A stretch of DNA of 64,000 nucleotides from Flectonema sp. DT1601 (lineage: Eukaryota): assembly GCA_964019425.1 (NCBI GenBank), contig OZ025799.1, positions 186,001 to 250,000 on the forward strand. Reading direction: 5' to 3'. Position numbers and translations under genes: made by a program. The notes under the pieces were generated by a model. It saw only the letters and a list, made by a program, of their open reading frames with translations. It did no database searches and had not been told where the DNA came from. Positions 6,867-57,238 of the stretch are shown here, one piece after another; the first letter of the stretch is position 1, and every line of letters begins with the position of its first letter.

Positions 6867-9023
6867 TCACTCAGTTCGGAAGGCACCAAATAACGTGCAG
6901 CTGAATTCATCTCCTGGATTTGCAGTTGGTTTTTGTGAGGTTCCCTTCGGAAGGTGTAGCAAAGCATTAGCGTCTCTCATACTTAGTAGTCGTGATGATA
7001 TCTGTCTTCCTGTTGAGGAAGCAATAAAAGAAGAAGTCTTACTGTCAAATACAACAGTAACTCGATGGTATTCAGGTCTTTCTGTATCGAGTTTGATTGG
7101 AGACGACATGAGTTTTGCAGTTACTACCGAATTACGACTTTCATTAAGAGAATAACCAAGCATTAATTTAATTGAGGGGACACAAAATAACTGAAAACAC
7201 ACAAGACAACTAACAGGATTTCCAGGAAGACCGAACACAGCTGTTCCATTACTCGTAACAAACGTGGTAGGCTTACCAGGCTTCATGCTGATACGTTGGA
7301 AATGAGTCTGAGAGTTAGGTAATGAACTTATTACTGTTTTGATGAAATCCTTTTCACCCATACTAACACCACCACTTGTGATAATAATATCAGGTTTTAA
7401 ACTCATTGCTTTATCGAATGCTTGTCGGACATGTTGTAAATCATCCGACACGATTCCTAAGTCTGTGAGAGTGTAACAATTATGAAACTGTTGCTCGAGA
7501 ACAGCCGTAATAATTGACCGATTACTATCAAATATCGACACAGAGTCTCTCAATCCCTCACTATTCGGTGATACAATCTCATTACCAGTAGACATGATAA
7601 CAACATGAACAGATTTCTTAACAGATAATGACGTAATTCCCATTGAAGCCATAATTCCTACGTCACCTGGTTGAATTATACTATTAGCTGGTATCAGTAA
7701 AGCTTCTTTTTGGATATCTGACCCTTCCTTTCGAATGTCTTGCCATCTTGTTATTGAATACCCCGGCGGTATTATTTGAATTAGGTCTTCGCTTCCTCCC
7801 TCACCTTCTTTAACCAACGCAGTATTCTCAACCTGAATAACTGTGTTACAGTGTGGGGGTATTGCTGCTCCAGTTGAAACCCTGTACGCGATTGGGTAGT
7901 TCGATTTATTTTCATTACTTTTTTTTGCTTTTAAAATATCAGAAGCTCCAGCAGTTCCGATAGTGTTACTGACTGAGAATATTAATTGTTCTGAAGTAAA
8001 GTCATCATCACAAATTGCATATCCATCTTTAATAGAAGCATTGAAAGGAGGATGTGAATATGGAGCGTGAATTGATTGAACCAAAACCTTACCAACAGAA
8101 CTTGTTATGTTGACATTCTCAATGTTGGAATTCTTAGGTGTGTGTTGCTCGACTAATTGATGAGCAAGTTTCATATCAATCATTTCATGTGGTGATCGTC
8201 TTGGTCTGTTACTAACACTTTGTGGTTGTAACCTTTCTGATTGTGAGCTATCCGTAAGCATATCATTCAATACTTCAGTTAATAACATTACATCAACACC
8301 AACAGGGATGTTACTAACAATACAATTACCTATCAATGATGATGCTGATCTGTTAATCTTGTTGTCGTACAACTGGTTTGTCATTCCTTCTAACTGTCTT
8401 CCTGATTTTAAGATAACATCAGCTGCGGTATCTCTGCTGGAGAAACTGTCTCCACCAATGACTAAGATACAATCATATAATAAAGACTTTGTTGTTAATA
8501 AACTTGTTAAGTCTGAGTCTGAGAGAACCTTCTCAACATGAGTATCAAACGTCTGAGATAGTCTTGTTGAGATATTGATTGATTCGTTCTGGTTGTTGAA
8601 GTCTACAACGAGGATGGTCTTTCTGAATGACATCGCTGATGATAAGTCAGAAATTATCAGTTTCAAAATCCCCGCCTTCTCAAGTGAAATGACCTCAGGA
8701 ATCGTTATCACTAACGTACCATTACAGATACCAGCAACACCTGTGTGGAATGGATCTTGGTATATTTGATTTGCAATTCCCTGAAGCATTCTTCCGTTAC
8801 AGATGTCTGTTACTTTACGTGCAGTGTCGTCGCATTCTCTCATCCCAGTACCTCCAGAAATTAGAATTGTCTTCTCGGTTGCGGTTTCAATGCAATTTCT
8901 TAATTCGTTGTCGTTATTGTTTTCAATTACAGTTCGGGTTACTTCAACACCAAGTTCCTTTCGAAGTATATTCAAAGAGGGGGTAGCAGTACCTCCAACG
9001 TCCAGCAGTAAGATGCCGCTCAT
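6867..9023 (-). CDS. Gephyrin/CNX1-like molybdenum cofactor biosynthesis protein (two MogA-like G domains + MoeA E domain)
   Basis: MoeA motifs PPFNASIKDGYA, VSTGAAIP, STGNEI, IFDSNRS, TSGGVSMGEKDF, MKPGKP, GLPGNPVS, RPEYHR, STGRQISSRLLSM. N-terminal MogA-like segments ISGGTGMRECDDT and VIGGDSFSSRDTA. Confidence 0.9.
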   Translation of the reverse strand: MSGILLLDVGGTATPSLNILRKELGVEVTRTVIENNNDNELRNCIETATEKTILISGGTGMRECDDTARKVTDICNGRMLQGIANQIYQDPFHTGVAGICNGTLVITIPEVISLEKAGILKLIISDLSSAMSFRKTILVVDFNNQNESINISTRLSQTFDTHVEKVLSDSDLTSLLTTKSLLYDCILVIGGDSFSSRDTAADVILKSGRQLEGMTNQLYDNKINRSASSLIGNCIVSNIPVGVDVMLLTEVLNDMLTDSSQSERLQPQSVSNRPRRSPHEMIDMKLAHQLVEQHTPKNSNIENVNITSSVGKVLVQSIHAPYSHPPFNASIKDGYAICDDDFTSEQLIFSVSNTIGTAGASDILKAKKSNENKSNYPIAYRVSTGAAIPPHCNTVIQVENTALVKEGEGGSEDLIQIIPPGYSITRWQDIRKEGSDIQKEALLIPANSIIQPGDVGIMASMGITSLSVKKSVHVVIMSTGNEIVSPNSEGLRDSVSIFDSNRSIITAVLEQQFHNCYTLTDLGIVSDDLQHVRQAFDKAMSLKPDIIITSGGVSMGEKDFIKTVISSLPNSQTHFQRISMKPGKPTTFVTSNGTAVFGLPGNPVSCLVCFQLFCVPSIKLMLGYSLNESRNSVVTAKLMSSPIKLDTERPEYHRVTVVFDSKTSSFIASSTGRQISSRLLSMRDANALLHLPKGTSQKPTANPGDEFSCTLFGAFRTE

Positions 9024-31044: not shown

Positions 31045-32322
31045 CTATATGACTAAGCATTTCCCAGCTAAATTTGCAACCTTCCGTTGCCCTTCAGTGA
31101 TGGTAAATTTATTTGTAGTTTTTTCAGAAGGGTTTAAATTATTGTTTGAAGCAATCCATTTTGAGCACAAATCAACCAGAGGAATGTTACTCATACTATG
31201 TTGAGATAATAAATACATTGGACCAGGCTCTTGTATAGATTCTGTACTGGCTATACAGGGTTGTGAACCAGTATTAAGAAACCCATAACCAAAAAAGACA
31301 CAGTAGTGGGAGTACACTCCGTTGTACAATGCTGGGAGAGAGGTACCAGGATTACGATCGTAAGGAAAAACAATAAGCTTTCCATCATCAATAATACTTT
31401 TAATTACAATTTCAATATCATCAGTTGTGGTTTCCAACACATAGGCATCTTTGAACAACAAGACATCAACAGCCAACCTTTCAAGGTTATTTATATTAAA
31501 AATTTCACCATCAGCGGAATAGCTGCGTTCAACTGCTGTTTCCAGGAGTGTCTTTGCATCTGATGGTAGTTGTTGGTTGTAGTACTCTTTTACCATTCGT
31601 AGTGCGGCAAGGCCACATGATGGTCCGACTTGTCTTTGCCATGGAACATTGACGCAATGATAAGTAAAACATAATTCTGAAACAGTGAGTGACTCACACG
31701 ATGATGATATGAGTGAATGCAACTCTTCATTATCGCGAGATTGGGAAGGAAGCTCTTGAACCAATCGCTTTCTCATCCAGGTAACGTTTTCTCCTTCTCT
31801 CGGATTATCAATATTATCCATCGCAGAAGAATCCATTTTATTCTGTCTCTGAGACAGCATCGATTCCAGAGCTAATATAGCCTGTTGATTAAACTTTCTT
31901 AATACTGGTTTATCAAGATTAATTCTTTGACAGAACATGTATCCACACTTCTCATAGAAACCTTTAGCAGTGGAAGTCCAGAGGTATATGTAGGTGTAAT
32001 TCAATTCTTTAGCAACTTCCTCTAATCCAGACATGAGTTCTTTGCCGTATCCTTTTCCTCTGTGTTTTGTTGAAATTACAACAGATGTGATGGCGCATGC
32101 CATCCCTTCTCCAGTTTCCGCAGCATTTTGAATACGAGCACACCCAACACATTCTGATGAGTTATCGTTTGATTCTAAGAGAAGTCCGAAGGTTCTTCCT
32201 TCTTTTTTATTTTGAATCCTCTCCAGTCTCATCTCCAATGAAATACCTGGCCATTCCTCACATAGACATTCACACGCCTCTCTACAGAGTGAATCGTTGC
32301 TTCCTAACTCAACAACTTTCAT
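31045..32322 (-). CDS. Fusion of an NAA80-like GNAT N-terminal acetyltransferase and an ACTMAP (C19orf54)-like actin maturation protease
   Basis: N-half: EEWP..S...RL, VGCARI, ITSVVI...HRGKGYGKELM..LE, YLWT...GFYEKCGY, TWMRKRL. C-half: QVGPSCGLAALRM, LLETAVERSYSADGEIF, FPYD, GVYSHY, YLLSQ, WIASNNNL, LAGKCLVI. Single uninterrupted ORF. Confidence 0.8.
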   Translation of the reverse strand: MKVVELGSNDSLCREACECLCEEWPGISLEMRLERIQNKKEGRTFGLLLESNDNSSECVGCARIQNAAETGEGMACAITSVVISTKHRGKGYGKELMSGLEEVAKELNYTYIYLWTSTAKGFYEKCGYMFCQRINLDKPVLRKFNQQAILALESMLSQRQNKMDSSAMDNIDNPREGENVTWMRKRLVQELPSQSRDNEELHSLISSSCESLTVSELCFTYHCVNVPWQRQVGPSCGLAALRMVKEYYNQQLPSDAKTLLETAVERSYSADGEIFNINNLERLAVDVLLFKDAYVLETTTDDIEIVIKSIIDDGKLIVFPYDRNPGTSLPALYNGVYSHYCVFFGYGFLNTGSQPCIASTESIQEPGPMYLLSQHSMSNIPLVDLCSKWIASNNNLNPSEKTTNKFTITEGQRKVANLAGKCLVI

Positions 32323-32606
32323 ATTTCCAGAACTGGGATGTAGAAGTAATTGACCAATTGTAAACTATATTCACCTTCGTATCCAACTTGTGTTATAAAT
32401 AGTTCAGTACTTGTAGTGCATCCGGTTCAGTACCTACCAACAAAAAGGACTCAAATCACTATACAAGAATAAGAGGCTAGGGAGGTGCAATCCACGTTGT
32501 AGTCAAAACTCGAAAAACAAAATCCCTTGAAACATCTTGACGGCTTGTCAAAGATATTTAAAAAAAAAAAAAGTAAAAAAAAAAGTAAAAAAAAAAGATT
32601 AAAGCC

Positions 32607-33464
32607 TCAGCTTCCTTTGGATCTGATTTTAATAATCAGCGTGTGTCTTACTCCTTCTGCTAAGGGAGTGACAGAGTGCTCAACGTTTCCGAGATGCATT
32701 AATGCATGACCGGGTTTGTTGTGTGGAAAATCTGTAGTTGTTTCTTCATGAAAGACGCGAAATTTAGCCCCACTAAAACCATTAGATAAACAAATATTTA
32801 ATGTGGCGAGGTCTCCATCAAGGTGTCGAGGCCAGTCATTATTTGTCTTGGTGTCGTATCGCATTACCTTTGGGAGGATTTCATAGCTCTCATTCTTTAA
32901 TGATGGGAACAGTTCTTTCATAAAAGGATCAAATTGCTTCATGAACCCTTCAAATAAACCACTAAGTCCTAAATAAGACATTCTTAAAGCTATTCCACTG
33001 TCATTCGTGACATTTAAAAAGTTCTCAATCTCTCTAGTTAGATTTTTACAGAAATGAGGAGTGAACAACGGAAATGCAAACACGTTGCTTGAATGAGACT
33101 GAACAAAGTTCGGTTTTAACGGTTGCAGCAGCATTTCATTAGAGAAGCGACGCATTTCAGGGAACATAGGCTTATAGTCAATTTCCTGTATTAAAGACTT
33201 CTTTTCTTCACCAGCACCATGCATTCTTAAAACCAAGTGAAATGTTGATTCACGTTGGACGCAGTAGTCAGCCAGCGTCCTGCCATCTTCAAGTTGTTTG
33301 CCAGCAAAGATTAGTCGTTGTTCATTAAGTTCTATGTCTAAGAGTTCTCGTAATTTTCTTTTCACATCACCAACGGTATCCCTTGATGAATAGTCTAGAG
33401 TGTATGTCTCTCCTTGAAGTGTTTTTACAAACAGTTTCGGATCACCTTGAAAATAACCACTCAT
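32607..33464 (-). CDS. Ubiquitin-like domain fused to a 2OG-Fe(II) dioxygenase
   Basis: ATG at 33464 after a CAG acceptor (~33485). [10 protein letters not shown]...[20 protein letters not shown]...ESTFHLVLR, then [37 protein letters not shown] (HxD...H...R). Confidence 0.85.
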
Positions 33465-42811: not shown

Positions 42812-45800
42812 TTAGATAACAAAACAAACAACAAGAATAATCATCACAGATACTAACTGAGAACTAATTCCAATTCCAGATGAAGGAGTGACCGATGCAA
42901 TTACCGGTTGCAGTGTGTTCGGAACAGATGAAGGAACAGCAGTCGGTATACCAGTCGGTAAACCCGTACTGACACCACTCGGAGTTATTGTTGAGAGAGG
43001 TGCTGGTACCGTGGTAGGAGGAACAATAATAGTAGCTGTTTGGTTGTTTATATTATTGTCACTACATTACATTAATTACTTTTATTCCATAATCACATAC
43101 TCGTAAAGCCGGTAGCTACAGCAGTCGAAAACAGTTCATTACTTCTAAGTTGTGAATTAGGATCATTCAATTCTTGTACAACAACATCAGTGATAGCGCT
43201 GATTAGAATTGCTTCACTAAATGGAGTTGGTGTGAACTCGATTTCAAATTCAGCTTTTGCTTGAATCTCATTCCCACTCGCCAACACTTGCAGCCATCTG
43301 TAACTCTGAGTTGAATTATTTCCGCTGCTATTGCTTACGAAATTATAACAATACCCACCATCTGGTGACGTCCCTGACCTGTCTACGGATGTGATACCAA
43401 GCTTTGCACGTCTTGCAGGCAATCCACAGCAGTACAACAACGTCGTATTTTTAACAAACTGCAACGTCTTACGGAGAGTTATCGCTATTTGGTCTTCGAA
43501 TATGGAAGCGTTAACAGATTGTAAGAAAGATCTAAACTGCGCTTGTGCTTCAGTAGATGTAGTACCATTAAATGACCTTAACGTCATCGCTGCGTGGATA
43601 ACCGGTGGTGGTTGTACTTGAGGTTCACTTGAATTAGTTTTTCCAACAGAGAATTGAAGGGAATTAACAACTTTTCCATCACATCCAATACCACTACAAA
43701 TAAATTCTAATACCATTGCTTCGCATTGTCTTGTAAATCGAAGACTACCTATGCTAACAACACCCATCGTAGATACAAATACACGACGTTGAAGGACATC
43801 AATGTCACCTGCCTGTTTTTTATATTTTAATTTCAATGATTTCGTCAAATAAAAAACATCAGAACGTACCACATTTAGTTATTATCATTAATTTTAGAAC
43901 AGAAAAGTGAGAATAAGAAAAGCAGAGTTTAGTAAAACAAAAAAGTATTCATTTCTGCAGTTTCCTAACATCAAAGGGTAATAGCATTGAGTTATTTAGT
44001 TACATACCTGTGTCCATTGTCCTAGATAAGAACCTTCACCAGAATGGCATATCGCGTTTACTTCTATTGTACTGAAATTATCAGCTTTTACAATCTGGTA
44101 TTTGTTTTTTTTTTTTTTTTTGATGATAAAGAGTAAAATCATAATAATAATAATAATAATAATAATAACATCTGCCAGTGTTAAAGTAAATACCTTATCA
44201 AATTCATCGACAATATGAACAACGATTTCGTAAGGCTCTCTCATTATACTGCAGGTTCTGTTTCTGTGTTTGGGGTTCTGTTTATATTTTCAAATAAAAT
44301 AGTTTTATTAAAAATAGATTTATTCAAAAACATACAACATATAGTTTAGATGACTCTCACAAGGGCTAAAGACAAGTATTCTATTTATTGATTGCATGAG
44401 AAAACTTCCTTCAACAGTTCCCTCTTCAGTTCCATAAACAAAAGGACATCCGAACGAGAAGTAAGCTTCTGGAGGACCTCTGTAAGTTGCATTAGAGGTG
44501 ATGTACTCACCGCTAACTAATCGAAATTGCTGAGAAGCTGATGAACTGATCCCATCGAAAAACCAACTAGATCCACCACAGTGACTAAATGAATCTGATT
44601 CGTATTGACAACCCCCACTAGGTATACCACTATAACAACTCTGTCGAACAGACACAGAATCCAAATCGATAGACAGACACGGTATAGCTGCTGGAACCAT
44701 CGTTACCAAAGCATTGCTACCCTCATCACCAGATGATATAATTTGATTCAACGAGTCAACCACAACAATCTTATAAATTACTGGTAATCCGTACAACCAG
44801 TACATTCCAGTGTGAATTGGAATCCATTTGTTTTTTATTTTGATACTAACTTTCAAAGCAGCAGGTGACTTAATAAAATACAAAGGAGTTGGCACAACTA
44901 CTGGAGGCATTTGCAAGACTGTGTTATTTACAAACGGAGTTTCAGCAAAGATTGTGATCATCCACGGAATGTGAGGACATGTTGGACACGTCCAGTCAGA
45001 AGTCGTATTTATATTTCTAATTGCGATCATTGCAATGCCTGCCGTTGATGTGACTTTTGAAATATTCCAAACTTGAACATGACATGAGACACAAGGCTTT
45101 CTCTTAGCCACTGCATTGAAGACTGTTCCCATGTCTCCATCAGCCTTTGTTGAGGTGTTTACATATGTTTGTAATTTTATATAAATAGTTTCACCAACTA
45201 AAAATGATGGTTCTCCCTCAGGTGTCAGCGCGCGTCTTTCAGATATAAAATCATCACCGCACTCGTTGTTTGAATGAACAGCACACACCGATTTTGAAAT
45301 GTTGAAATGCATTATATCAACAGATATGATATACAGTTCTGATAGTGCAGAAGTGTATAAATTAACCATTGATGTTGGTAGCAGTGATGCTGAAGGGATA
45401 TGACATTCACCGAATAAAGGAAAATACCCAGATACCTTAACAAGATCAGTATTTATAACACGAACACCGCAGCTGTTTGGATTTGAATAAGTTGTTGAAC
45501 AAATAAAACAGTTTGGTGGTATCATTGCAGAGCCATCAATTATTATTTGACTTGTCGTCCAATTTAAATTATCACCTCGACCGTTAATTGGTTCACTTTT
45601 AGTATTGACAACAACTAGTTCAATATCAGTCGTTTGATTTGCTATCTTGTGTGTTGGTTGACTGGACCAACTCCATGAAGACTTCTCAAGTATCGAATAC
45701 GACACATGAACTGTCACATTAGACTCATTCCTCTCAGGCGCTATCATATCTGATGGAGATCTAAAAACTAAATCACATTGACATTTCAAATTATGAGGTG

Positions 45801-48800
45801 CAGCTTTAAATATTATGTTGAATTTCGCCTTACCTTTGCGAACAAAAGCTGATCCTGGCACAGACAAATCACATCCTTCATAATTACACTTCAGAGTTGA
45901 AAATGTAACTGGGGATTTCATTGGTTCAGTTGATATAAACCAGTTTTGTTGATTTCTTGATCCGACCAACAGGATTTCTAATGTAAATATTTCACCAACG
46001 AATCCCTCAATAGGATGATCACTAACTGTAATGTGAGAAGCAGGAACCGTTAAATCAATTAGAATAGGATTTCCTTTCCTTCCAAGTAGTGTAACAGGAA
46101 TATTTGGATAGTTTTGTAATCTTACAATGATTGGATAATTACTTCTGATGTCAGAAACAGATATTTTCATTTGACCAGGAATAGTATTGTCATAGGTTGG
46201 ATACGGGATTCCATTTAGAATAAAAGTACCTGCAGTAATAACTGGATAAGAACCTCCCTCAACAAGAACACCTGCAGTAGATTTATTGCTAATTGGATTC
46301 ACAATACTAAGAGGAGGTAATCTTACACTCTGAAGAGTAGCAACAACCGACTTTGATCGATGTATCTGAGATAACGGTTGCATGGATCTGTAACTCGGAC
46401 CTCCAATGCTGTATGCACGATCACCCAGATCATCAGCTGCGTATACATTAAAATAGAAAACACCAAGTTGAGTTGTGCGACTAATATTAGCCATTTGAAG
46501 AGTCTTTCCAACAGGTATCATAATTATCTGTTGGATTGTTGTTAAGACAGTGAGATCTATCTGTTTTCCTGCATACGAAATTGAACATTTAAAACAAGCT
46601 CTGTTGAATGCGATTACTGCTGTTGCGATTCCAAATAATGAAGAAATCTGTTTATGTTGGGATAACACATAAAGTGATCCACCACCTCCGTTACCAAAAC
46701 TCTGAGGTAGAAGTATTGGTAGTTGTGATTGACCACCAGATTCGTATGATGGAAAATTATTTTTATCAGACCTAATAACAGTCAGTGAAAAGGGAACTCT
46801 TCGATAAACAGCTGTCGGAGGAACACCTCCGAGAATCCATCCAATTGGACATGAAACGATTCTAAATTCCATCACATTCGTATCACTAACTTTGTTTCGA
46901 AGTATCGTATACGTTATTCGATCGTTGTGTTCATATCGCAATTGAACAACACACTGAGCACATGGACGAGTAAAATAAAACTTAACTTCCGGCCACTGAA
47001 AAACGTCATTCCGTGAGAACATTAAATCTGATTGAGATACTTCACAGCTGAGCGATGATCCGAATTTTAAAAACCCTCCATTACCATATTTTAGAAGAAG
47101 TCGTTTATCAGATGAAACCGACTTTGCAATTATCGAAAGACGTCCCGGCAATGAGGAAGTCTGAATTTCCATAACTGAACTACGAAGCTGCTGTTTAACA
47201 AATAGTTTTAATGTGAGTGTGAAGGTTGATCCAATCCGGATGATGTTTTTATTTTTTTCGATCATAGCAGGATCGTGAAGGGATTCAACTTCTGAAGACA
47301 CCAACGGAATTGTTTGATTTGATATGAGAACTTTCAAATCCTCAACGTCATCAACGAGTTTGACACGGAAATTACGAGATTGTACTTTTCTTGTCTCCGG
47401 AATTAAATAATCAAATCTGTGAGACCTTATATCGACATCAGTGCAGTCTTGGGCGCCATTTTCAATATCTGCCGTCATGTAGCAAAGAGTTACTACAAGA
47501 AAACAACTTTCGCATGGTTCTGAAAAAACTGCGAAAAACACCACCACACCATCAATCATTTTAACTAAATTCTGTTCTGGTCCGATTGCTGGTGACAGCG
47601 ATGAGAGTTTGCCTTCTATCGTTTCTGCGGTGAAAGTTTTCAAATTGCTAAAAGAAGTCTTTTTCAAAGTATACACTTTAAGTTGTCCACCATTATTACA
47701 TCCAGTGTTGTACTTTGAATTAACCCTTACATACATACCACCAAGACCCCAAAAACGAGGAAAATTAGGGTTTTGGATATCAAAAGAAGCATTAGTAATG
47801 TGAACTTGTACTGGAAAAGGAACTCCAGATATGATTGAGTCAAAGCCTGAATACTGGAACGGGACATCTTCAACCGTATCAAAATTTCTTTTATTCGACA
47901 GGTATCCGTTTTCAGGCCACGGAACAAATCTGAGACCTTTGTTAGGATTTTTAAATTCTAAATTATTAAAACACTCAACATCGTGAATGACGTAGTCTTC
48001 TATTGTTAATTTAAGACTCGAATCAGTCAAATACTGTTCATCATACCCAACATCATTCCAATAAAAAGTACCCAATCCAATCGTAACCTCACTAAGTAAT
48101 CCATCACTAATAATTGGTACTAATTTCATTGATATTGTTGTTGATAATAGTTGATTTGAGTATAGAGGTCCCATTCTTATTAGTGGGAGCCATCTGTTGT
48201 TGAGAGGTTGATCGAGTCCCATTATTATGCTTGAACCAGAAGTAGAAGTGAGAGATATGTTGTATTTCAAATGAGCATCAGCATAATAATAAACATTTAA
48301 ATAATTATAAACAAGATATCCAGTGACAGTGAATATTCCATTTGTTTCTGTTGAGCCACAACCTGTACCAATTCGTACAACTCGTCTTGTAAGTGATTTT
48401 GACTGATCATGAAATTCAATTTTTGGATTCACATCAGGAACGATCGTCAGCGTTACTATCGCACAACGAAGACTGTCGGTGTATATTCCAATTGGCCTTG
48501 TTTTATGTTTTGCACAGATATAAACTATTCCGTTATTCAACGGACCCTGCGTGCTTGGATCGATATCCGCATACGTTAATTTTAATAAACCAGATCCAGC
48601 AACACCGGGACTGACGTCATCAAGGGATGGTAAGTCAGCTTTCAACTTTACCAATCCATAAGAATAAGAACTAGATGATTGATACTTCGAATTGACTTCA
48701 AATACCGGAGCTTCCCAATTCCCAGTTTCAGTCATCTTTTCTAAACAACATTGAGCAGTAGCAGAGCCTGATATGGTTATATTCCTATAAGTAAAATCTA

Positions 48801-51800
48801 TTTTATTATCCACCAATACAGATAGCTTCAGTTCGATTCCCTCTGCCATACCAGAAATGGTTGTTGTAATGTAAGGATTTTGGTGGTTGCTGTCATTAAA
48901 ATCTATGCCGCTTGTAATAGGAGTAACCTGAATGTATCCTTCACTGTTGAATGTACCTCCACCTTCGTAAATACTGAGCTCCACCATAGAATCACAAGAA
49001 TACTTACCATGCTGTGTCATTGCGTGTACGGTTATAGTTTTCAGTTCAAAAATACCCGCTTTTGACATTGGTAAAATTTTTTCATACAAAGCAGAAAATC
49101 TCAAATTAAAACTGTGATTTCCTCCATCTAAACGAGACGTAATAATTGGTGACGACTCAACGACATCCGATTCAACTAAATTAATACCAACTGTCGGTTG
49201 ATTTTGAGTTGTTGGCGTAGTTTTAACTTCTTCAACCTCAATAAATATCCACCACTTAGGCCATGATAACTGACTTGTTATAATTGAAGTATTGCTTTGT
49301 CTTAGTACCGCTTGAACAGTTATTGAAAATGAAGAAGATTTTAATTTATTTGATGCTCTCGACGGATCGAATACGATAGTTTGATGAGATGCTTTGCAAT
49401 CAATTCCAAAGTTTACTAATTTCTTATCGACGAATGACAATTTTAATGAGCCTCTCAAACTATCACCAGTCTGACCTGTAGGACCAATTCCCGCAGTACT
49501 ATGAAAAGTAAACAAACAGTTTGAACATGGTTTATTCACATTTAATATCATACTTGCTGATGTGAATCCATTCTGTGTCGTCACCGGATAGGATTTAACT
49601 TTGCAGTAATCTGACTGAGAATTACTAAAAGCACATCCAACATAACCCTCTGACTGGACTAAGTGAACACCACGAGAATTAGATAACCCACTACTTGTTG
49701 ACAGTGATTCATCTGAATAAATCATAACAAATATATCACCATTATGAAACCTATCCAAAAGTACTTCACCAGTATCCGTTACTGTTGCTGGGTATACCGA
49801 AATCGCAATACCTGTACTGATGTCAGCAGTTTTTTCGATAGTATAGTCTCCTGAATGCTTTCCTACAACAAGAGTGTTTGCAGGGACTCGAACTGAAGTT
49901 TGAATAGTCAGCTCAACGACACCACAATCAAATATCAGTAAACAACCATTTACATAATCACGATTAGCTGATAATCTGAAATCAATTCCCCAAAGATCTC
50001 CTCCTAAAGGAATGGCACGAGCGTTTGATAATTTTAAACTATCATCTTCATTGAGAGGAGGATTTGCATAATTTTCTGGTGACGGTTTTCCATTTGATAA
50101 CCAAATCACAGAAAGGACATCTCCGCGTGGCTCACCATCATTAAGAGTTGCAGTGAATGCCAAAGGAAATCCGTTTGAATTTTGTATCAGTTTTCCTGTT
50201 GATGTCGAAGCCTTGAATATAATTCTGTAGGGGATTAGTACTTCTAAATATGTGTTCTGATCATTTTTAACCCAAGGTTTCACTGGTTGACTAACTCTAT
50301 CTGACAACACATCCAGAGGCTCAATGTGAACAACTTCTAATTCTCTTGGCTGAAGTCTTTTTATTATCAAAATATATTCTGAAGTCGTAGTTATGAATGT
50401 TCCACTATTTTGAACATAAAATTTAAAAGTTGCATTGTTGACTGCAGACGCAAGAATAGGTTTAAATGTGACTGTGTACTTACCACCAATGGGCCAGGTT
50501 TTATTTTGATGCTGATTCAGTTGAATGACTGCGTCTGGGACGCTATTGGAATCGTTTGCTGATCTTATGACTGACAGTGAACCCGCCGGACTAAATTCGG
50601 GTACCCCTCGATAATGAGGAATTATCTGAAAATTACATATCGATCCGTGATAGCAAACCAACTCTTCTGAATCATCATCCATAATAACAGTTATCGACGT
50701 CGGATACTTCGATTTCATATTCACCCAAAACGATTGAGAAGAAAGAGTTAATCGTCTACTTGGTATCGTCACTATTATTTTAATACCACAACCGAATAAA
50801 TTATCAGGACACGATGACTGATATTGTAAAAGTATTGTACGATATTCTAATGAAGATCCCCAGTCTTCTTTCAGACCATTTGTTGGTCTTTTATATTCAC
50901 CTTCTTCATCATAACAAGAAGACTCTAAGCTTTTTACAATAAAATCACCAGGCTCAGTAGCAGTAGAATACTCGTTGCAAGAAAGTCCAGCCCATGATGC
51001 GGTTTTCTGACAGCGGACAACTTCAACTGACATGTCTTCTGGAGGAAGAGAGACACCTGATTCCGACACCAAACTAACAGAGAACATAATTACAGACCCT
51101 GTCTCTACTACAGTTGATCTTGACATAATACCGTCTTCTGTAATATCAGTGTCAGGTATATCGCTGTATTGTAATTCCGTTGTACTGTTATATAGCGAAA
51201 ATCGATTTGCGTTCTTACCAGTCGTTGAGTTGCTATTTTCCTCAAAAGTCCCGCTGATTTTCAACTGTGTTGGAGTTGCAGCTACATAGTCTCTCCAGTA
51301 GCGAGTGTCTCCACCTTCTTTTGTATTTCCTTTGTTGTACAGTTGATGTACTACTCCCCGTTTGGAATACGTGCCAGCGGCAGCCTTAAAAACACAGATT
51401 TTGTAACGACCAGATGCAGAAGTGTATACTGGAGGAAGAATAAAAGGTTTCGCACTGTGAAGCACAGCTGTTGAAGTCGCAGATGGAGTAAGAACATGCC
51501 AGTCGTCGATTCCGGTGAAGTCCGTTGGAGAAGACGATGGAATGGGACAGTTTTGAGTTTCATTTACGACAGTCAATAAATCAAACTGATGACCATCAAT
51601 TAAACAACTAACTCCAGTTGATAAATCAGTCTTACACCAATTAGTAACATGTGAATCAATTATTGTTACGTTTGTTAGTAACTTCGATACATCAAAACTT
51701 AAGAATGAAGGATACGTAAACAAAAGGAAATTATTCGTTAATTTGTTGGGAATTTGCACCCAAGCTGAAGAGCTGTTTTGGCGAAAGCAAACTAAGTATG

Positions 51801-54800
51801 CACCAGGTTCTGGCATATGGATAACAGGAGATAGCGCAACTAATGAAGGACACGTTCCAAAATATGGTTCACATTTAGTATCAGTAGACACCACGCCATG
51901 AGAACGACAGTTGCTGTGGACAGATGTCCAATCGTCAACTGAGTCTGTCCACTTTGAGTCACCTGGAAATGAATTCTCAGGAGGTATTTTATACTGAACA
52001 ATTTTAAACTGATTACTGTCACTAACAAATGAATTATCACCGTAGCCTTCCATTATAAACCCATCTGCTTCAGTTCCCCCAACATACGTTGTTAGCCCAC
52101 CAGCAACTGCTGTTTCAGCCTGAGAAACATTCAGATCAGATTCATTTTTTAAATTTGTTATTTGCTGAAGTATTGAAGACAGCGACCAGTTCTTCACTAA
52201 CGCTTTCTGAGTTCGGAATTGTCCTTTTGGAGCGAGGGAGGTATTTGAGTGAGGAATTTCTAACCAAAGAGCGCTATCCTTAAGATACGTACCAGTTCTG
52301 TAAGTGTTTGAATAAAGACAAACTCGATACTCAACAGAAGCATCTTCAGCTACGTGTGGTAGTTGGATTACGACGGATGCTCTTCCAGCATTTGTCGATG
52401 AAATGCTTAACTCATTCTCTAAAGGTTTATCTGATGAGCACAGTGCTGTCGTTCGGACAACCGCAGCGCGATCATCCTCATGAAACCAACCATTAAGATT
52501 GATTAACTGTAATGAAATAGCTGCTCCGTTAGTTGGGATGCTGTCGTTGTGGTTAACTTGCCATACAATTTGATGACTTTTCACACTTAAATTAGACACT
52601 CGAAACCATGACATGTCTTCAATAGATTTAATACAAATTTGATAAACACCAACCACTTGTGGGATTGGTATTCCGAATTCAAAACCAGAAATATTTGACA
52701 TCGCTCCAAATGGTTCATTCAAATCAACAGGTGGCTGTAAACAGTCACCCGTTGTGGTTATCAACTTCGACATTGTTGTGATGAGAGTATCACCATTCGC
52801 TGATATTAAATAACCACCTAAAGTCATACCAGTGAACACTTGATATCCTTTTAGAGTTTTAAAACGATTATCTACTACGACAGTTACTTCATTTTCAGGA
52901 GTAATTAACATCTGTAAAGAAAGTCTAACCCAGTTAGGAGTTCCACTTTGCTTGTAGCAAATCACAGCTGTTCTGTTGTACTCTGGTAGTGGTATTGTAA
53001 TGGAAGATGCAATAGAAGGTAATCCCGAGATGGTTTCACCTTTTTGCGCTTTAGAGATATCATCATAATAAGAAGGAGTGATTTGTATGTATTTATTTAA
53101 TAGTGTCATCTCTGTTGATGTTTTTTCAGAATTACAAGAAGACCCGGAACATAATTGCATAGCTAATTCACTCTGACTGCATGCAATAGCGTGACTCGAG
53201 CTACTGCTGTCATGGTATAAACCACTTTGCTGAAGTGATCCACTGCCATCAACTTGACAATAACTATTCACAAATACCGGCATTGACACAGCAATAGCTG
53301 TGCGATTATTACACGTAGAAGTACTCCAAACTATATTCAATATATCACCTGGGTATTGACAGTAATATGGATTCTGTTCTAGGCACTCTCCTGGAGACGA
53401 AGACATCAACTCAGAGCTACGATCTTTAATTAGTATTAACGCTTCTGCATTAGGACGATATTCCGACATTAAAAGTGACAAAGTATGATCTTCCCATGCT
53501 GATAGATACCAATTACCTGAAATATATTGACCTCGTTGTTTCATTGTAATCGGATCGTGGTTGTGATAAATGATGTTGGTACCAGTTGGTGATGCTTGTA
53601 GAGTTTTATAATTGAAAGCTCCTTGTCTATAACAGACTCTCCAATCTCCCTTTGGAATTGTAATGTAAAACGAAACAGACGTAACTGAGTCATCATTGAG
53701 AAGATTTCCTCGACATGATATTTTTGTATTCGACGAATCCAATCCGAGGTTGGAATCTTGGCAGTCATAAGTTCCTCCATCAAGGTTTATCGCTCCCAAT
53801 TCTCTTATCTCTAAGTTAGAATTACTATAAGAACAAGGTCTATGTATTGGTACTAGTTTAACTAATGAACCAGAATCATAACTACTCAGTGACTTGTTAA
53901 TGTTGTTTCTATTAATTTGATTCCATGGAGCTGACGATAACAACTTCCACTCTGATGATACGTCAGTCGTATTGGATATTTCAACAACGATAGGACCATA
54001 AGTAGCTACTCTACTGTCATTCATATACCACGTAGCTGGAGATGGGTATTTTATACCTATATCTCTTCCCCAATATTTTGGTTGTAGGATAGTAGGAGTT
54101 AACTCGGATCTGAATTGAATGCCCGGAAGATGTTTATAAAACTGACTCATGGATGACTGATTTACGTCACTGATCCAAGAAAGCATTCTAAAACCACTAT
54201 TTGCAGTGCAATTACTATTAACAGGGGGGTTAGCGCAAGCAATCCGATAACAAACGTACCATGATATTGATTCATCAGAGATGTATATATTTGCATTTGT
54301 ACTTTCAATGTTGGTAGCATTATTCATACCAAGAAATGATTTTAAACTGTGAGATCCTATCGCATAGGGTGATTCATCTTCGTTGAATCCACCGACGGTA
54401 TTATTATTTGAGTAGTCGTATTCGGTTGTCCAGCATCCTTCATTAGGACGAGATCCCTTGTATATTGATTGAATACCGATTGTTTTTATTGTTTTTGATT
54501 CGTCAGATTTCGATTTTCTGATTAATCGAAAATAATCACCTCCTTTAGGAGACCAATAATTTGAAGTATCAGTCGATGGATAGGAACTCAGTCTCAATTT
54601 CTTATCAAAAAAAGCTATTTCTCCGTATGAATCAGGTTGTAAGTCAAAAGCCATCCATTCAACATCTTCTGATATTATTTTAAAGGAAAATGATGATGAT
54701 GATGATGATGATGATACGCAATTGGTTCTGTCACTGCATAATGGTATCTTTTTCCACATCGGTATTTGATCAATCGTTGTGTTGCTCAGCCAATGTCGTC

Positions 54801-56028
54801 TCCATTCCGAACGCTGAAGTTTATTAGAGTAGCAGATGTCATATTTCTGTCCTACGGAATTCTGACCTCCAGGTAGTTTCACATAAACATACGCATCGCG
54901 TTCTATGTTGGGGAGATTATCTCCTGCAGGGGAGTAGGTGCCAGAGCTGTACCATGAATCAGTTAAAGGATTTGAATGTTGAGTACCGAATAGTCCAATA
55001 CCACCTGCTGTCCCACCTAAATAGAATCCTTCGTAACCATCTGGTGTCCAAGTACCGTCTTCTAATGTGTTGTTGGATCCTATGTACTGTGATCCAAGAT
55101 TTTGAAATTCATAAGTACAAGAAGTCCCTTCAGGTACAATTTTCAAATTATCACCTTGAGCACAATAATAGTCATCTGACTTACACTCAGAAGGAGGATA
55201 CGTAAAATTATATTTGTCGTTGCTCAGAATTTGAATAATCGCGTATTGTGAAGATGTCGTTTCAGGAAGATAGTACCACGTTGTTGATTGCTGACCTTTG
55301 AATATGTAATTACCTTCAGACGTGAATAGTAATTGCCACTTTCTACGATTAGAAACTGGTTCGTTATATATTTGAGAATCTAATTTTATTTTATAACAAA
55401 CAATGAAATTAACATTATGACTCGGAACTGAGAATGTAAAGTGAGCAGTAGTCGCAAATTCATTTTTTTCAAAAGTCTCTGAAGTAGCCAATCCAAAGTG
55501 ATTAAAATGCATTAAACGACTGGCATCAGGATATCGACTACAGTCTTGATCTAAATTTGATGAATACGAATAAAGAGCTAACTCTATAACTCCAATGTCG
55601 GAGGTATTCCATAACCTAACTGGAAGTGAATTAATAACTGCCGTGATGGATATTCTTATTTCCTGACCTTCAGTGAATTCAGTAGTAGAGAACTCTGATG
55701 TGATGTTAGTGAAACTGATTTTTGATTCAGATGTTGAAACTGATAGAGATTTCGTTGATGAAATCGACTTCGACTTACTCAAACTAATCGACTGCGACAC
55801 AGTTGGAATACTAAGCGAACTTGTGATCGAATGCAATGATAAGCTTTCTGACGATGTCCTACTAACAGAACGACTATCTGATTTCGAATTTGAATCTGTC
55901 GGTAGCGACCAACTCTTCGTCGAAGTCAAGCTCATCGTCAGACTATCTGAAAAGGTCTCTGTTCTCGTTACCCCATCAGCATTCCTTAATAATAATAACC
56001 ATATTAAAAAAACATGAACCGACTTCAT
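42812..56028 (-). CDS. Giant (~4,300 aa) signal-peptide-bearing, probably GPI-anchored cell-surface protein (5 exons)
   Basis: Exon 1 ~44336-56028 (signal peptide, Ser/Thr-rich N-terminus, repeated [YW]x[IV]C[YF] modules), exon 2 ~44194-44265 (boundaries uncertain), exon 3 44008-44094, exon 4 43101-43812, exon 5 42812-43035 (Pro/Thr-rich, ending SSGIGISSQLVSVMIILVVCFVI*). Splice phases of the last three introns are compatible. Confidence 0.75.
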
Positions 56029-56347: not shown

Positions 56348-57238
56348 TTATTGGTATTCAAGAGTCATTGTAGCAGAGAACATAGAGCCACCACTAGCAG
56401 GTGATATTGTAATAGTAGTTGAAGCAACATTTATTAATGTACCTAATACCCTTCGGAAATCAGTTCTGTCATTTATTGGTTGTGAATTCAGACCAACAAT
56501 AACATCACCAGGACTAACCCCAGCTAGAGATGCCGGTCCGTTCTTTCTAATCGCCAATACCTTCACTCCATTGACTCCGCGAGAAGAAAAGTCAACTAGT
56601 TCGAGTCCGACTGAGGGAAGTTTTATTTGATGAGATGCTTGAACGGGTGCAGGGGAAACAGAATTAATAGTGCCAACAGTTTGTGCTGAAGATGGTAATA
56701 CAGGAGTAAGACAATCATCATATTCTGAAACAGAACTGACTGCTGCTCTAATAAAGTTAAGTACAGTCACTCGCTGAAGAGTAGTAGCGAAGGATGGATC
56801 TACCACGAGTGTTGTGAAAAATCCTGGTGAGAGTCGAAGCATTTCGCTTATTGAGATATAGCTCATCTGGTCAGTACCACGAGTGTCGTAGCAGGCTATA
56901 GACTCCACACCTGATTGTTCAACACAATGAGATGATATAAATATTATTGTTGCTTGTGAACCAGATTTTCCAATTCCTTTTATTTCTCTCTGAATACCAA
57001 TTTTTGTAGCCGCTTCGTTATACAGTTTTGAGACTGTAAATCCCAACTGTGAGAGAACTTCTGCGATCTTATTGCAATCCTGAACTCCTTCATCACGTCT
57101 TCCCATTTGCATGTATGTGTCGCACCCAATTACGATACCTCGACGAGTAGACGGTTGTGAGTCTTCTCTGACTCCGCATGTCATTCTCATTACCACATCA
57201 TCAATAATATGAACATCACTCCCCGGCAGGTGAGGCAT
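56348..57238 (-). CDS. Caspase/metacaspase-like (C14 p20) domain, probably inactive, fused to a PDZ domain
   Basis: GIVIGCDTY, QDCNKIAEVLSQLGFTV..LYNEAATK, IIFISSH, LVVDPS. C-terminal VGLEL...GVKVLAI..NGPASLAGVSPGDVIVGLN PDZ. Confidence 0.7.
   Translation of the reverse strand: MPHLPGSDVHIIDDVVMRMTCGVREDSQPSTRRGIVIGCDTYMQMGRRDEGVQDCNKIAEVLSQLGFTVSKLYNEAATKIGIQREIKGIGKSGSQATIIFISSHCVEQSGVESIACYDTRGTDQMSYISISEMLRLSPGFFTTLVVDPSFATTLQRVTVLNFIRAAVSSVSEYDDCLTPVLPSSAQTVGTINSVSPAPVQASHQIKLPSVGLELVDFSSRGVNGVKVLAIRKNGPASLAGVSPGDVIVGLNSQPINDRTDFRRVLGTLINVASTTITISPASGGSMFSATMTLEYQ

Follow-up and report, generated by a model that had tools for sequence, protein, structure and literature searches.

The window analysed here, a stretch of 64,000 nucleotides from Flectonema sp. 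DT1601 (contig OZ025799.1, positions 186,001 to 250,000 of the forward strand; assembly GCA_964019425.1), carries on its minus strand, at positions 31045..32322, a gene in which an NAA80-type acetyltransferase is followed by an ACTMAP-type cysteine protease, as indicated by its open reading frame (ORF), by Pfam and by a structural model. An initial annotation, made from the letters of the window, had described it as one 425-aa ORF joining both enzymes of actin N-terminal maturation. We confirmed a single stop-free frame of 425 aa running from ATG to stop, for which no intron is necessary; the strand was absent from that annotation. All features of the gene described below lie on the minus strand as well.

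The eight motifs quoted in the initial annotation, together with Cys236 and His339, were found at their places. Those of the N-terminal half are EWP..S...RL (residues 23-33), RGKGYG (88-93) and WMxK (182-185), and those of the C-terminal half are Q.GP.CGL.AL.M (231-243), Y.A.GE.F (268-275), PYD (320-322), Y.LS (370-373) and SN..L (392-396), the last being a short pattern with two further chance occurrences elsewhere. Pfam searches with the 425-aa protein detected a GNAT domain (PF00583; E 2.3e-14, 54 bits, residues 13-128) and an ACTMAP-like_C domain (PF21646; E 1.3e-20, 74.5 bits versus a cut-off of 27, residues 229-346), both well clear of chance expectation; the C39 families remained below their Pfam cut-offs. 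NCBIfam returned generic GNAT matches only, all below cut-off, for six of six proteins. In an AlphaFold2 model built with 30 homologues (mean pLDDT 85.5, pTM 0.79), both domains were well folded, and order was poor at about residues 138-175. The gene looks native, because its GC content (0.388) and its GC content at third codon positions (GC3, 0.32) fall between the extremes seen in 16 other ORFs from the window (GC 0.355-0.435, GC3 0.255-0.408).

Families of the two halves

Residues 1-187 (31762..32322), including the last beta strand at 181-187, were delimited by structural alignment and sequence and are assigned, on sequence and model, to the NAA80-type acetyltransferases. The earlier assignment to NAA80, and not to a generic GNAT, was borne out by sequence, profile and fold rankings among solved structures. 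In a pairwise search of the PDB with the N-terminal half, fly and human NAA80 ranked first and second (E 3.6e-12 and 9.2e-6), followed by a match at 8.8e-4. A profile of 35 divergent family members scored 128.6 bits with fly NAA80, 111.6 bits with human NAA80 and 48.2 bits with the next GNAT, and a second profile search likewise put these two proteins at the top of the PDB sequences. When the model was submitted to Foldseek, NAA80 occupied the five best rows, and a wide structural search aligned model residues 1-187 to residues 13-168 of fly NAA80 with Z 20.9 (rmsd 2.5, 152 aligned) and to residues 82-308 of human NAA80 with Z 20.4 (rmsd 3.6, 151 aligned), the next score being 16.4.

Fly residues were numbered with an offset of +9, set by the chain range 13-168 of the structural alignment. 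By pairwise alignment and this offset, fly Trp36, Arg43, Ser88 and Thr125 correspond to Trp24, Arg32, Ser80 and Thr116 of the fusion protein, and a profile alignment places fly Lys73 at Arg63, where the pairwise alignment is shifted by two residues. Previous work on fly NAA80 has shown that the W36A and R43A changes abolish activity on an acidic actin peptide and that K73A and S88A raise the Km (PMC5924903). Hence, as far as the alignments tell, the two residues essential for acidic actin ends are retained in this protein, within a predicted substrate-pocket loop and helix at 32227..32253. Conservation was counted over 160 two-domain proteins (162 were found and two near-copies removed); the Trp24 position is Trp in 134 of 136 fusions. 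The acetyl-CoA binding motif (residues 88-93) is encoded at 32044..32061, and its Gly93 is kept in all 151 fusions with a residue there.

Like NAA80/NatH of the fly (CG8481; 5WJD/5WJE) and of human (6NAS/6NBE/6NBW), the N-terminal half has a GNAT core that is interrupted by a long insert ahead of its last strand. In the fusion this insert comprises residues 132-180 (31783..31929) and was recognised by alignment, conservation and pLDDT: its start aligns with the insert of human NAA80, the last strand aligns with the end of the human protein, and two predicted helices are conserved (Leu152 in 140/160 and Glu153 in 146/160 fusions; pLDDT blocks 41-58). The human insert is a proline-rich, profilin-binding loop (PMC7141826). 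No polyproline occurs in the insert of this protein, which differs from NAA80 in carrying conserved helices in that place as well as in bearing a protease, and Pro-rich runs were found in 6 of the 160 fusions. Since fly NAA80 also has no proline loop (PMC7141826), a polyproline profilin site does not define the family. The helical insert may serve as a partner-binding element. Behind the insert and last strand come an ordered linker and the helix that opens the protease half (residues 188-216, 31675..31761; pLDDT blocks 88-96); the spacing from Trp182 to Gln231 is 49 residues in this protein, with a median of 54 and a range of 39-126 in the 160 fusions.

The C-terminal half (residues 217-425, 31048..31674) is, judged by PF21646, model and fold, a predicted papain-like cysteine protease of the ACTMAP family with intact Cys and His, as the initial annotation had suggested, and not an unrelated C39 peptidase. 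PF21646 was matched by all 35 family members examined and DUF3335 by none of them (E 0.01); in the protein itself DUF3335 (PF11814) gave no match even at E 1. Residues 196-425 modelled alone reached a pLDDT of 92.2, and their fold was papain/C39-like, with Z 14.7 to both 2btw (rmsd 3.4, 172 aligned) and 3erv (rmsd 2.5, 152 aligned). No ACTMAP-family structure was found in the PDB searches. When the protease half of a diatom homologue was used as query in the Atlas, the nearest clusters were chordate ACTMAP (features 0.97 and 0.96; structure TM 0.78), and the automatic UniRef name of the Cylindrotheca closterium fusion is 'Actin maturation protease'.

The putative catalytic residues are strongly conserved. 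Gln231 and Cys236, the presumed oxyanion residue and nucleophile (31615..31632), are invariant in 160/160 fusions, as is Gly233. The nucleophile of human ACTMAP is Cys132 (PMC13367750), to which Cys236 presumably corresponds. His339 (31306..31308), the probable catalytic base, is His in 153 of the 154 fusions with a residue there. His375 (31198..31200) ends a strand in the model and is a candidate for the third residue of the triad; of the 153 fusions compared at this position, 128 carry His and 22 Gln. The papain/C39-like fold, the PF21646 match and the conserved Gln, Cys and His are shared with animal ACTMAP (C19orf54), which differs in standing alone. The protease half may well be strictly orthologous to the animal enzyme and not to the bacterial proteins of PF21646, but the Atlas scores of the two groups lie close together (features 0.97 and 0.96 versus 0.96).

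Spread, inheritance and origin

The initial annotation had treated the fusion as a feature of this protist; the fusion is real, but it is not peculiar to Flectonema and belongs to a large family present in diplonemids, stramenopiles and haptophytes. When 1.84 billion cluster representatives were searched with a profile, 208 matched at E <=1e-30, and among the best 150 of these, which were examined for domains, 137 contained both domains (at least 25 bits each). Both were also present in 35 of 38 closer homologues, and most of the representatives without both were short and fragment-like. Among 30 proteins looked up, seven clusters had named carriers: Flectonema neradi, Diplonema papillatum, C. 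closterium, C. fusiformis, a Bacillariaceae assembly, Pelagophyceae CCMP2097 and Chrysotila carterae. Three further carriers came from marine eukaryote transcriptomes. The nearest homologue, 67% identical over its full length, is a complete ORF on an assembled transcript of the diplonemid F. neradi, in agreement with the earlier proposal. It is sister to the protein studied here (100/99), and both fall in a clade with DIPPA_16051 of D. papillatum (100/95); this placement and the order of genes in the window make it probable that the host is a diplonemid. Of 16 metagenome loci, 13 had a single stop-free frame covering the GNAT and the protease part with the catalytic Cys; at two others the frame was broken inside the insert, and the remaining one had protease sequence only.

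Trees of the GNAT half and of the protease half, calculated for 132 full-length rows, agreed with each other (Mantel r 0.86, against 0.12 for the best of 500 shuffles) and had 50 of 129 splits in common. This agreement points to one old fusion whose halves have been passed on together, although common ancestry by itself would also produce it. A pattern scan of viral contigs found the fusion in none of 50 candidates. A scan of prokaryote genomes, which reaches close relatives only, yielded one match among 17 candidates, and this was rejected because no gene-sized ORF corresponded to it; in a search for PF21646, that genome and 14 controls alike gave no match. A word-based search with the N-terminal half scored no stand-alone NAA80 among 16 candidates, and a word-based alignment search gave 13 proteins, all of them fusions or parts of fusions; neither search can show that stand-alone forms are absent.

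Extended forms were also observed. One protein (P0119) carries a run of ten prolines and a second ACTMAP/C39-like domain, two (P0019 and P0033) have a PDZ domain inserted within the protease, and another (P0089) has an endonuclease/exonuclease/phosphatase domain ahead of the fusion.

The initial annotation had also offered the gene as possible evidence that the pathway is ancient, which does not follow from this gene alone: its orthologue is classed as a diplonemid gain and the gene tree departs from the species tree. DIPPA_16051, described as a 'hypothetical protein', belongs to an orthogroup that the supplement of PMC10161547 files under 'Diplonemid gains' and that, among 30 taxa, has members besides only in Hemistasia (2), Dictyostelium (1) and Xenopus (8). 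There is nearly an even chance that diplonemids acquired their copy by lateral transfer from some other marine eukaryote, in which case the window is no proof that the fusion predates the split of Discoba from other eukaryotes. For such a gain speaks the count of zero for this orthogroup in three euglenids, in all 12 kinetoplastid columns, in Naegleria and in two of four diplonemids of that survey, but orthogroup tables miss divergent genes and repeated loss is common, plants and fungi being listed without NAA80 (PMC5924898). The fusion gene tree, which is unrooted and was inferred with LG+G4 from 50 of the 132 full-length rows, nests the diplonemid clade (100/95) among four sequences (99/96, 99/90), two of them from marine transcriptomes, and joins the pelagophyte to the haptophyte (99/99) and not to the diatoms. 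Given this discord between gene tree and species tree, transfer between eukaryotes is possible, and diplonemids have been reported as predators of algae (PMC10161547). On the other side, the four surrounding sequences could be discobids, and the tree has long branches and no outgroup. Any transfer would have to be old, as the composition of the gene matches that of its host. On balance, transfer among marine eukaryotes is about as probable as vertical descent followed by many losses.

A proposed two-step actin maturase

In the animal pathway, the acetylated first residue of actin is removed and the acidic residue thereby exposed is acetylated (PMC11735805). We consider it probable, by analogy with this pathway, that the fusion protein is a cut-then-acetylate actin maturase with both steps in one polypeptide. 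This reading starts from what was observed, namely the architecture, the families to which the halves belong, their conserved catalytic residues and their joint inheritance, and adds to it actin as presumed substrate and the presumed order of the steps. Common co-translational enzymes would leave new actin with an acetylated first residue, either Met or the small residue that follows it. The C-terminal protease, using Cys236, His339 and probably His375 together with Gln231, would remove this residue and expose Asp or Glu. The GNAT domain would then hold the acidic end through Trp24, Arg32, Arg63 and Ser80 and acetylate it from acetyl-CoA, and the cut actin may be handed over within one molecule without a profilin-binding proline loop.

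Indirect support for actin as the substrate came from three sources. Both halves have actin-dedicated enzymes as their nearest relatives. The orthogroup of DIPPA_16051 unites the diplonemid protein with Dictyostelium and Xenopus, lineages known for this actin processing, and has no members in Arabidopsis, Chlamydomonas, S. pombe or Tetrahymena (PMC10161547). Moreover, actin of the haptophyte E. huxleyi starts with Met-Ala and three acidic residues (PMC5924898, Table S2), an end of the type that this pathway produces.

Several observations weigh against an actin maturase. The same orthogroup table does not reveal whether the animal and Dictyostelium proteins were grouped through the GNAT or the protease half, and it contains no member from E. 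huxleyi or T. pseudonana (PMC10161547). T. cruzi has a Met-Ser-acidic actin end and is scored as having no NAA80 (PMC5924898, Table S2); therefore, an acidic actin end does not require these enzymes. As for the protease half, bacterial PF21646 clusters came close behind chordate ACTMAP when the diatom homologue was the query (features 0.96; TM 0.70). In the acetyltransferase half, 6 of 11 fly pocket or core positions are changed (Asn33 to Cys, Arg38 to Gly, Ala42 to Met, Ser46 to Arg, Glu87 to Thr and Ser124 to Trp); fly Glu87 is dispensable, and Ser124 contacts residue 1 of the substrate (PMC5924903). The Ser124 position is Trp in 134/160 fusions. Finally, in a 65-member clade that contains the diatoms (e.g., P0005, P0007 and P0009), Tyr occupies the Arg43 position in 53 of 54 members and Tyr or Phe the Ser88 position in 63 of 63; fusions outside this clade have Arg in 73 of 81 and Ser in 77 of 87. 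These coupled changes suggest that specificity may vary within the family, and the diatom enzymes may, to judge from their sequences, read a different N-terminus.

A divergent group (P0106, P0107, P0117, P0120, P0122, P0148 and their neighbours) has an animal-like Ser at the Ser124 position and His-Trp in the protease, and may be closest to the ancestral state.

The best-surviving functional alternative keeps the chemistry and changes the target: the enzyme would act on another or a wider set of substrates in this or some lineages, or only one half would still be directed at actin. The Trp that replaces Ser/Thr at the residue-1 pocket, the double alteration in the diatom-containing clade and the missing profilin-binding polyproline all fit such a change, as does the additional in vitro activity of fly NAA80 in acetylating Met-acidic peptides (PMC5924903). 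We nevertheless judge it unlikely. The protein from Flectonema retains the two essential pocket residues and the two that affect Km, and fly NAA80 manages without a proline loop too. Besides, two actin-dedicated enzymes appear to have been kept together over great distances, for which one shared substrate would be the simplest reason.

It is very improbable that the protein represents a bacterial type of fusion, with a GNAT and a papain-like domain of the DUF3335/C39 sort acting on a non-actin peptide, and that its likeness to NAA80 and ACTMAP is convergent. Fusions of a GNAT followed by a papain-like domain have been described in bacteria (PMC10318531) and resemble ours in domain order and length, PF21646 itself has bacterial members, and an Atlas feature search with a whole diatom homologue did retrieve bacterial GNAT and DUF3335 clusters at 0.92. 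However, these rows share only 132-139 of 256 features, below the bar of 170, and the structure search ranks ACTMAP and NAA80 clusters first. The bacterial fusions also differ in their protease family (DUF3335 in 0/35 members of ours), the GNAT half of the family studied here scores 60-80 bits higher with NAA80 than with any other GNAT of solved structure, and all named carriers are eukaryotes; the prokaryote scan, within its reach of close relatives, gave nothing besides the spurious match. An artefact, in which two neighbouring co-transcribed genes or a misassembly are read as one, would fit the location of all 27 ORFs of at least 150 aa in the window on one strand, as in co-transcribed diplonemid clusters (PMC10161547). 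Its probability is negligible, because independent transcripts and gene models (the Flectonema transcript, D. papillatum) carry the same complete fusion, the frame is free of stops, and 13 of the 16 metagenome loci agree.

A two-step actin maturase outside animals bears on a view held in recent literature, since a 2025 review (PMC11735805) and a 2026 paper (PMC13557074) describe actin N-terminal maturation as exclusive or specific to animals. The initial annotation had presented the gene as evidence for the pathway beyond animals. This fits the carriers of the fusion, but was already known in part: a 2018 paper reported a NAA80 orthologue and processed actin in Dictyostelium, scoring E. huxleyi, trypanosomes, Plasmodium and Tetrahymena as without NAA80 (PMC5924898), and a 2022 letter found Paulinella actin acetylated at Glu3, which was taken to imply NatH in Cercozoa (PMC9237673). 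Both cases are non-animal evidence for the same pathway and differ from ours in that no fusion is described in the available text of these papers. We found no report of an NAA80-ACTMAP fusion in the literature on ACTMAP, NAA80 and protist actin, a scope that leaves out Haahr 2022 (Science) and Arnesen and Aksnes 2023 (TIBS), which may mention it; the words 'fusion' and 'fused' are absent from the available parts of the 2025 review (PMC11735805) and of the zebrafish paper. What is described here is thus a conserved fusion of two known enzyme types with known chemistry, in an architecture for which we found no published description.

If the protein is indeed an actin maturase, the full two-step pathway is present in three major groups where it was unexpected, with diplonemids, diatoms, a pelagophyte and a haptophyte as carriers. 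The fusion links NAA80 and ACTMAP independently of animal genetics, and it opens the origin of the pathway to experiments in a diplonemid or a diatom. With its compact length of 425 aa, the protein is a candidate for the first structure of the ACTMAP family and might provide a one-gene tool to produce correctly matured recombinant actin. A broader proposal, which we hold to be doubtful, is that the single-chain maturase is the normal, ancestral form across Discoba, stramenopiles and haptophytes and that actin N-terminal maturation was already present in the last common ancestor of eukaryotes. NAA80 and ACTMAP, as the separate genes of animals, would then be the other state of a deep fusion/fission marker, and cut actin would pass directly to the acetyltransferase, the conserved helical insert replacing the profilin loop.

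Neighbouring genes

Upstream of the fusion gene, a T-rich tract at 32560..32596 (minus strand) is a candidate polypyrimidine tract for spliced-leader trans-splicing, a role suggested by diplonemid gene organisation (PMC10161547). The upstream neighbour, at 32607-33464 on the minus strand, encodes a fusion of a ubiquitin domain with an oxygenase domain like that of OGFOD2. The one-strand layout of the ORFs resembles the co-directional clusters of Euglenozoa; in D. papillatum, genes lie in co-directional, co-transcribed clusters (PMC10161547).

Elsewhere in the window, again on the minus strand, four near-identical 174-aa ORFs spaced at 663 bases (359-2872) show a weak DOMON match below cut-off and may be repeats, as exons or modules, within one larger gene. 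A single ORF of 3902 aa at 44320-56028 begins with a hydrophobic stretch and matched nothing in Pfam at E 0.001. The ORF at 56348-57238 combines a caspase-like (Peptidase_C14) domain with a PDZ domain, and a gephyrin-like molybdenum-cofactor protein with two MoCF_biosynth stretches, MoeA_N and MoeA_C is encoded at 6867-9023.

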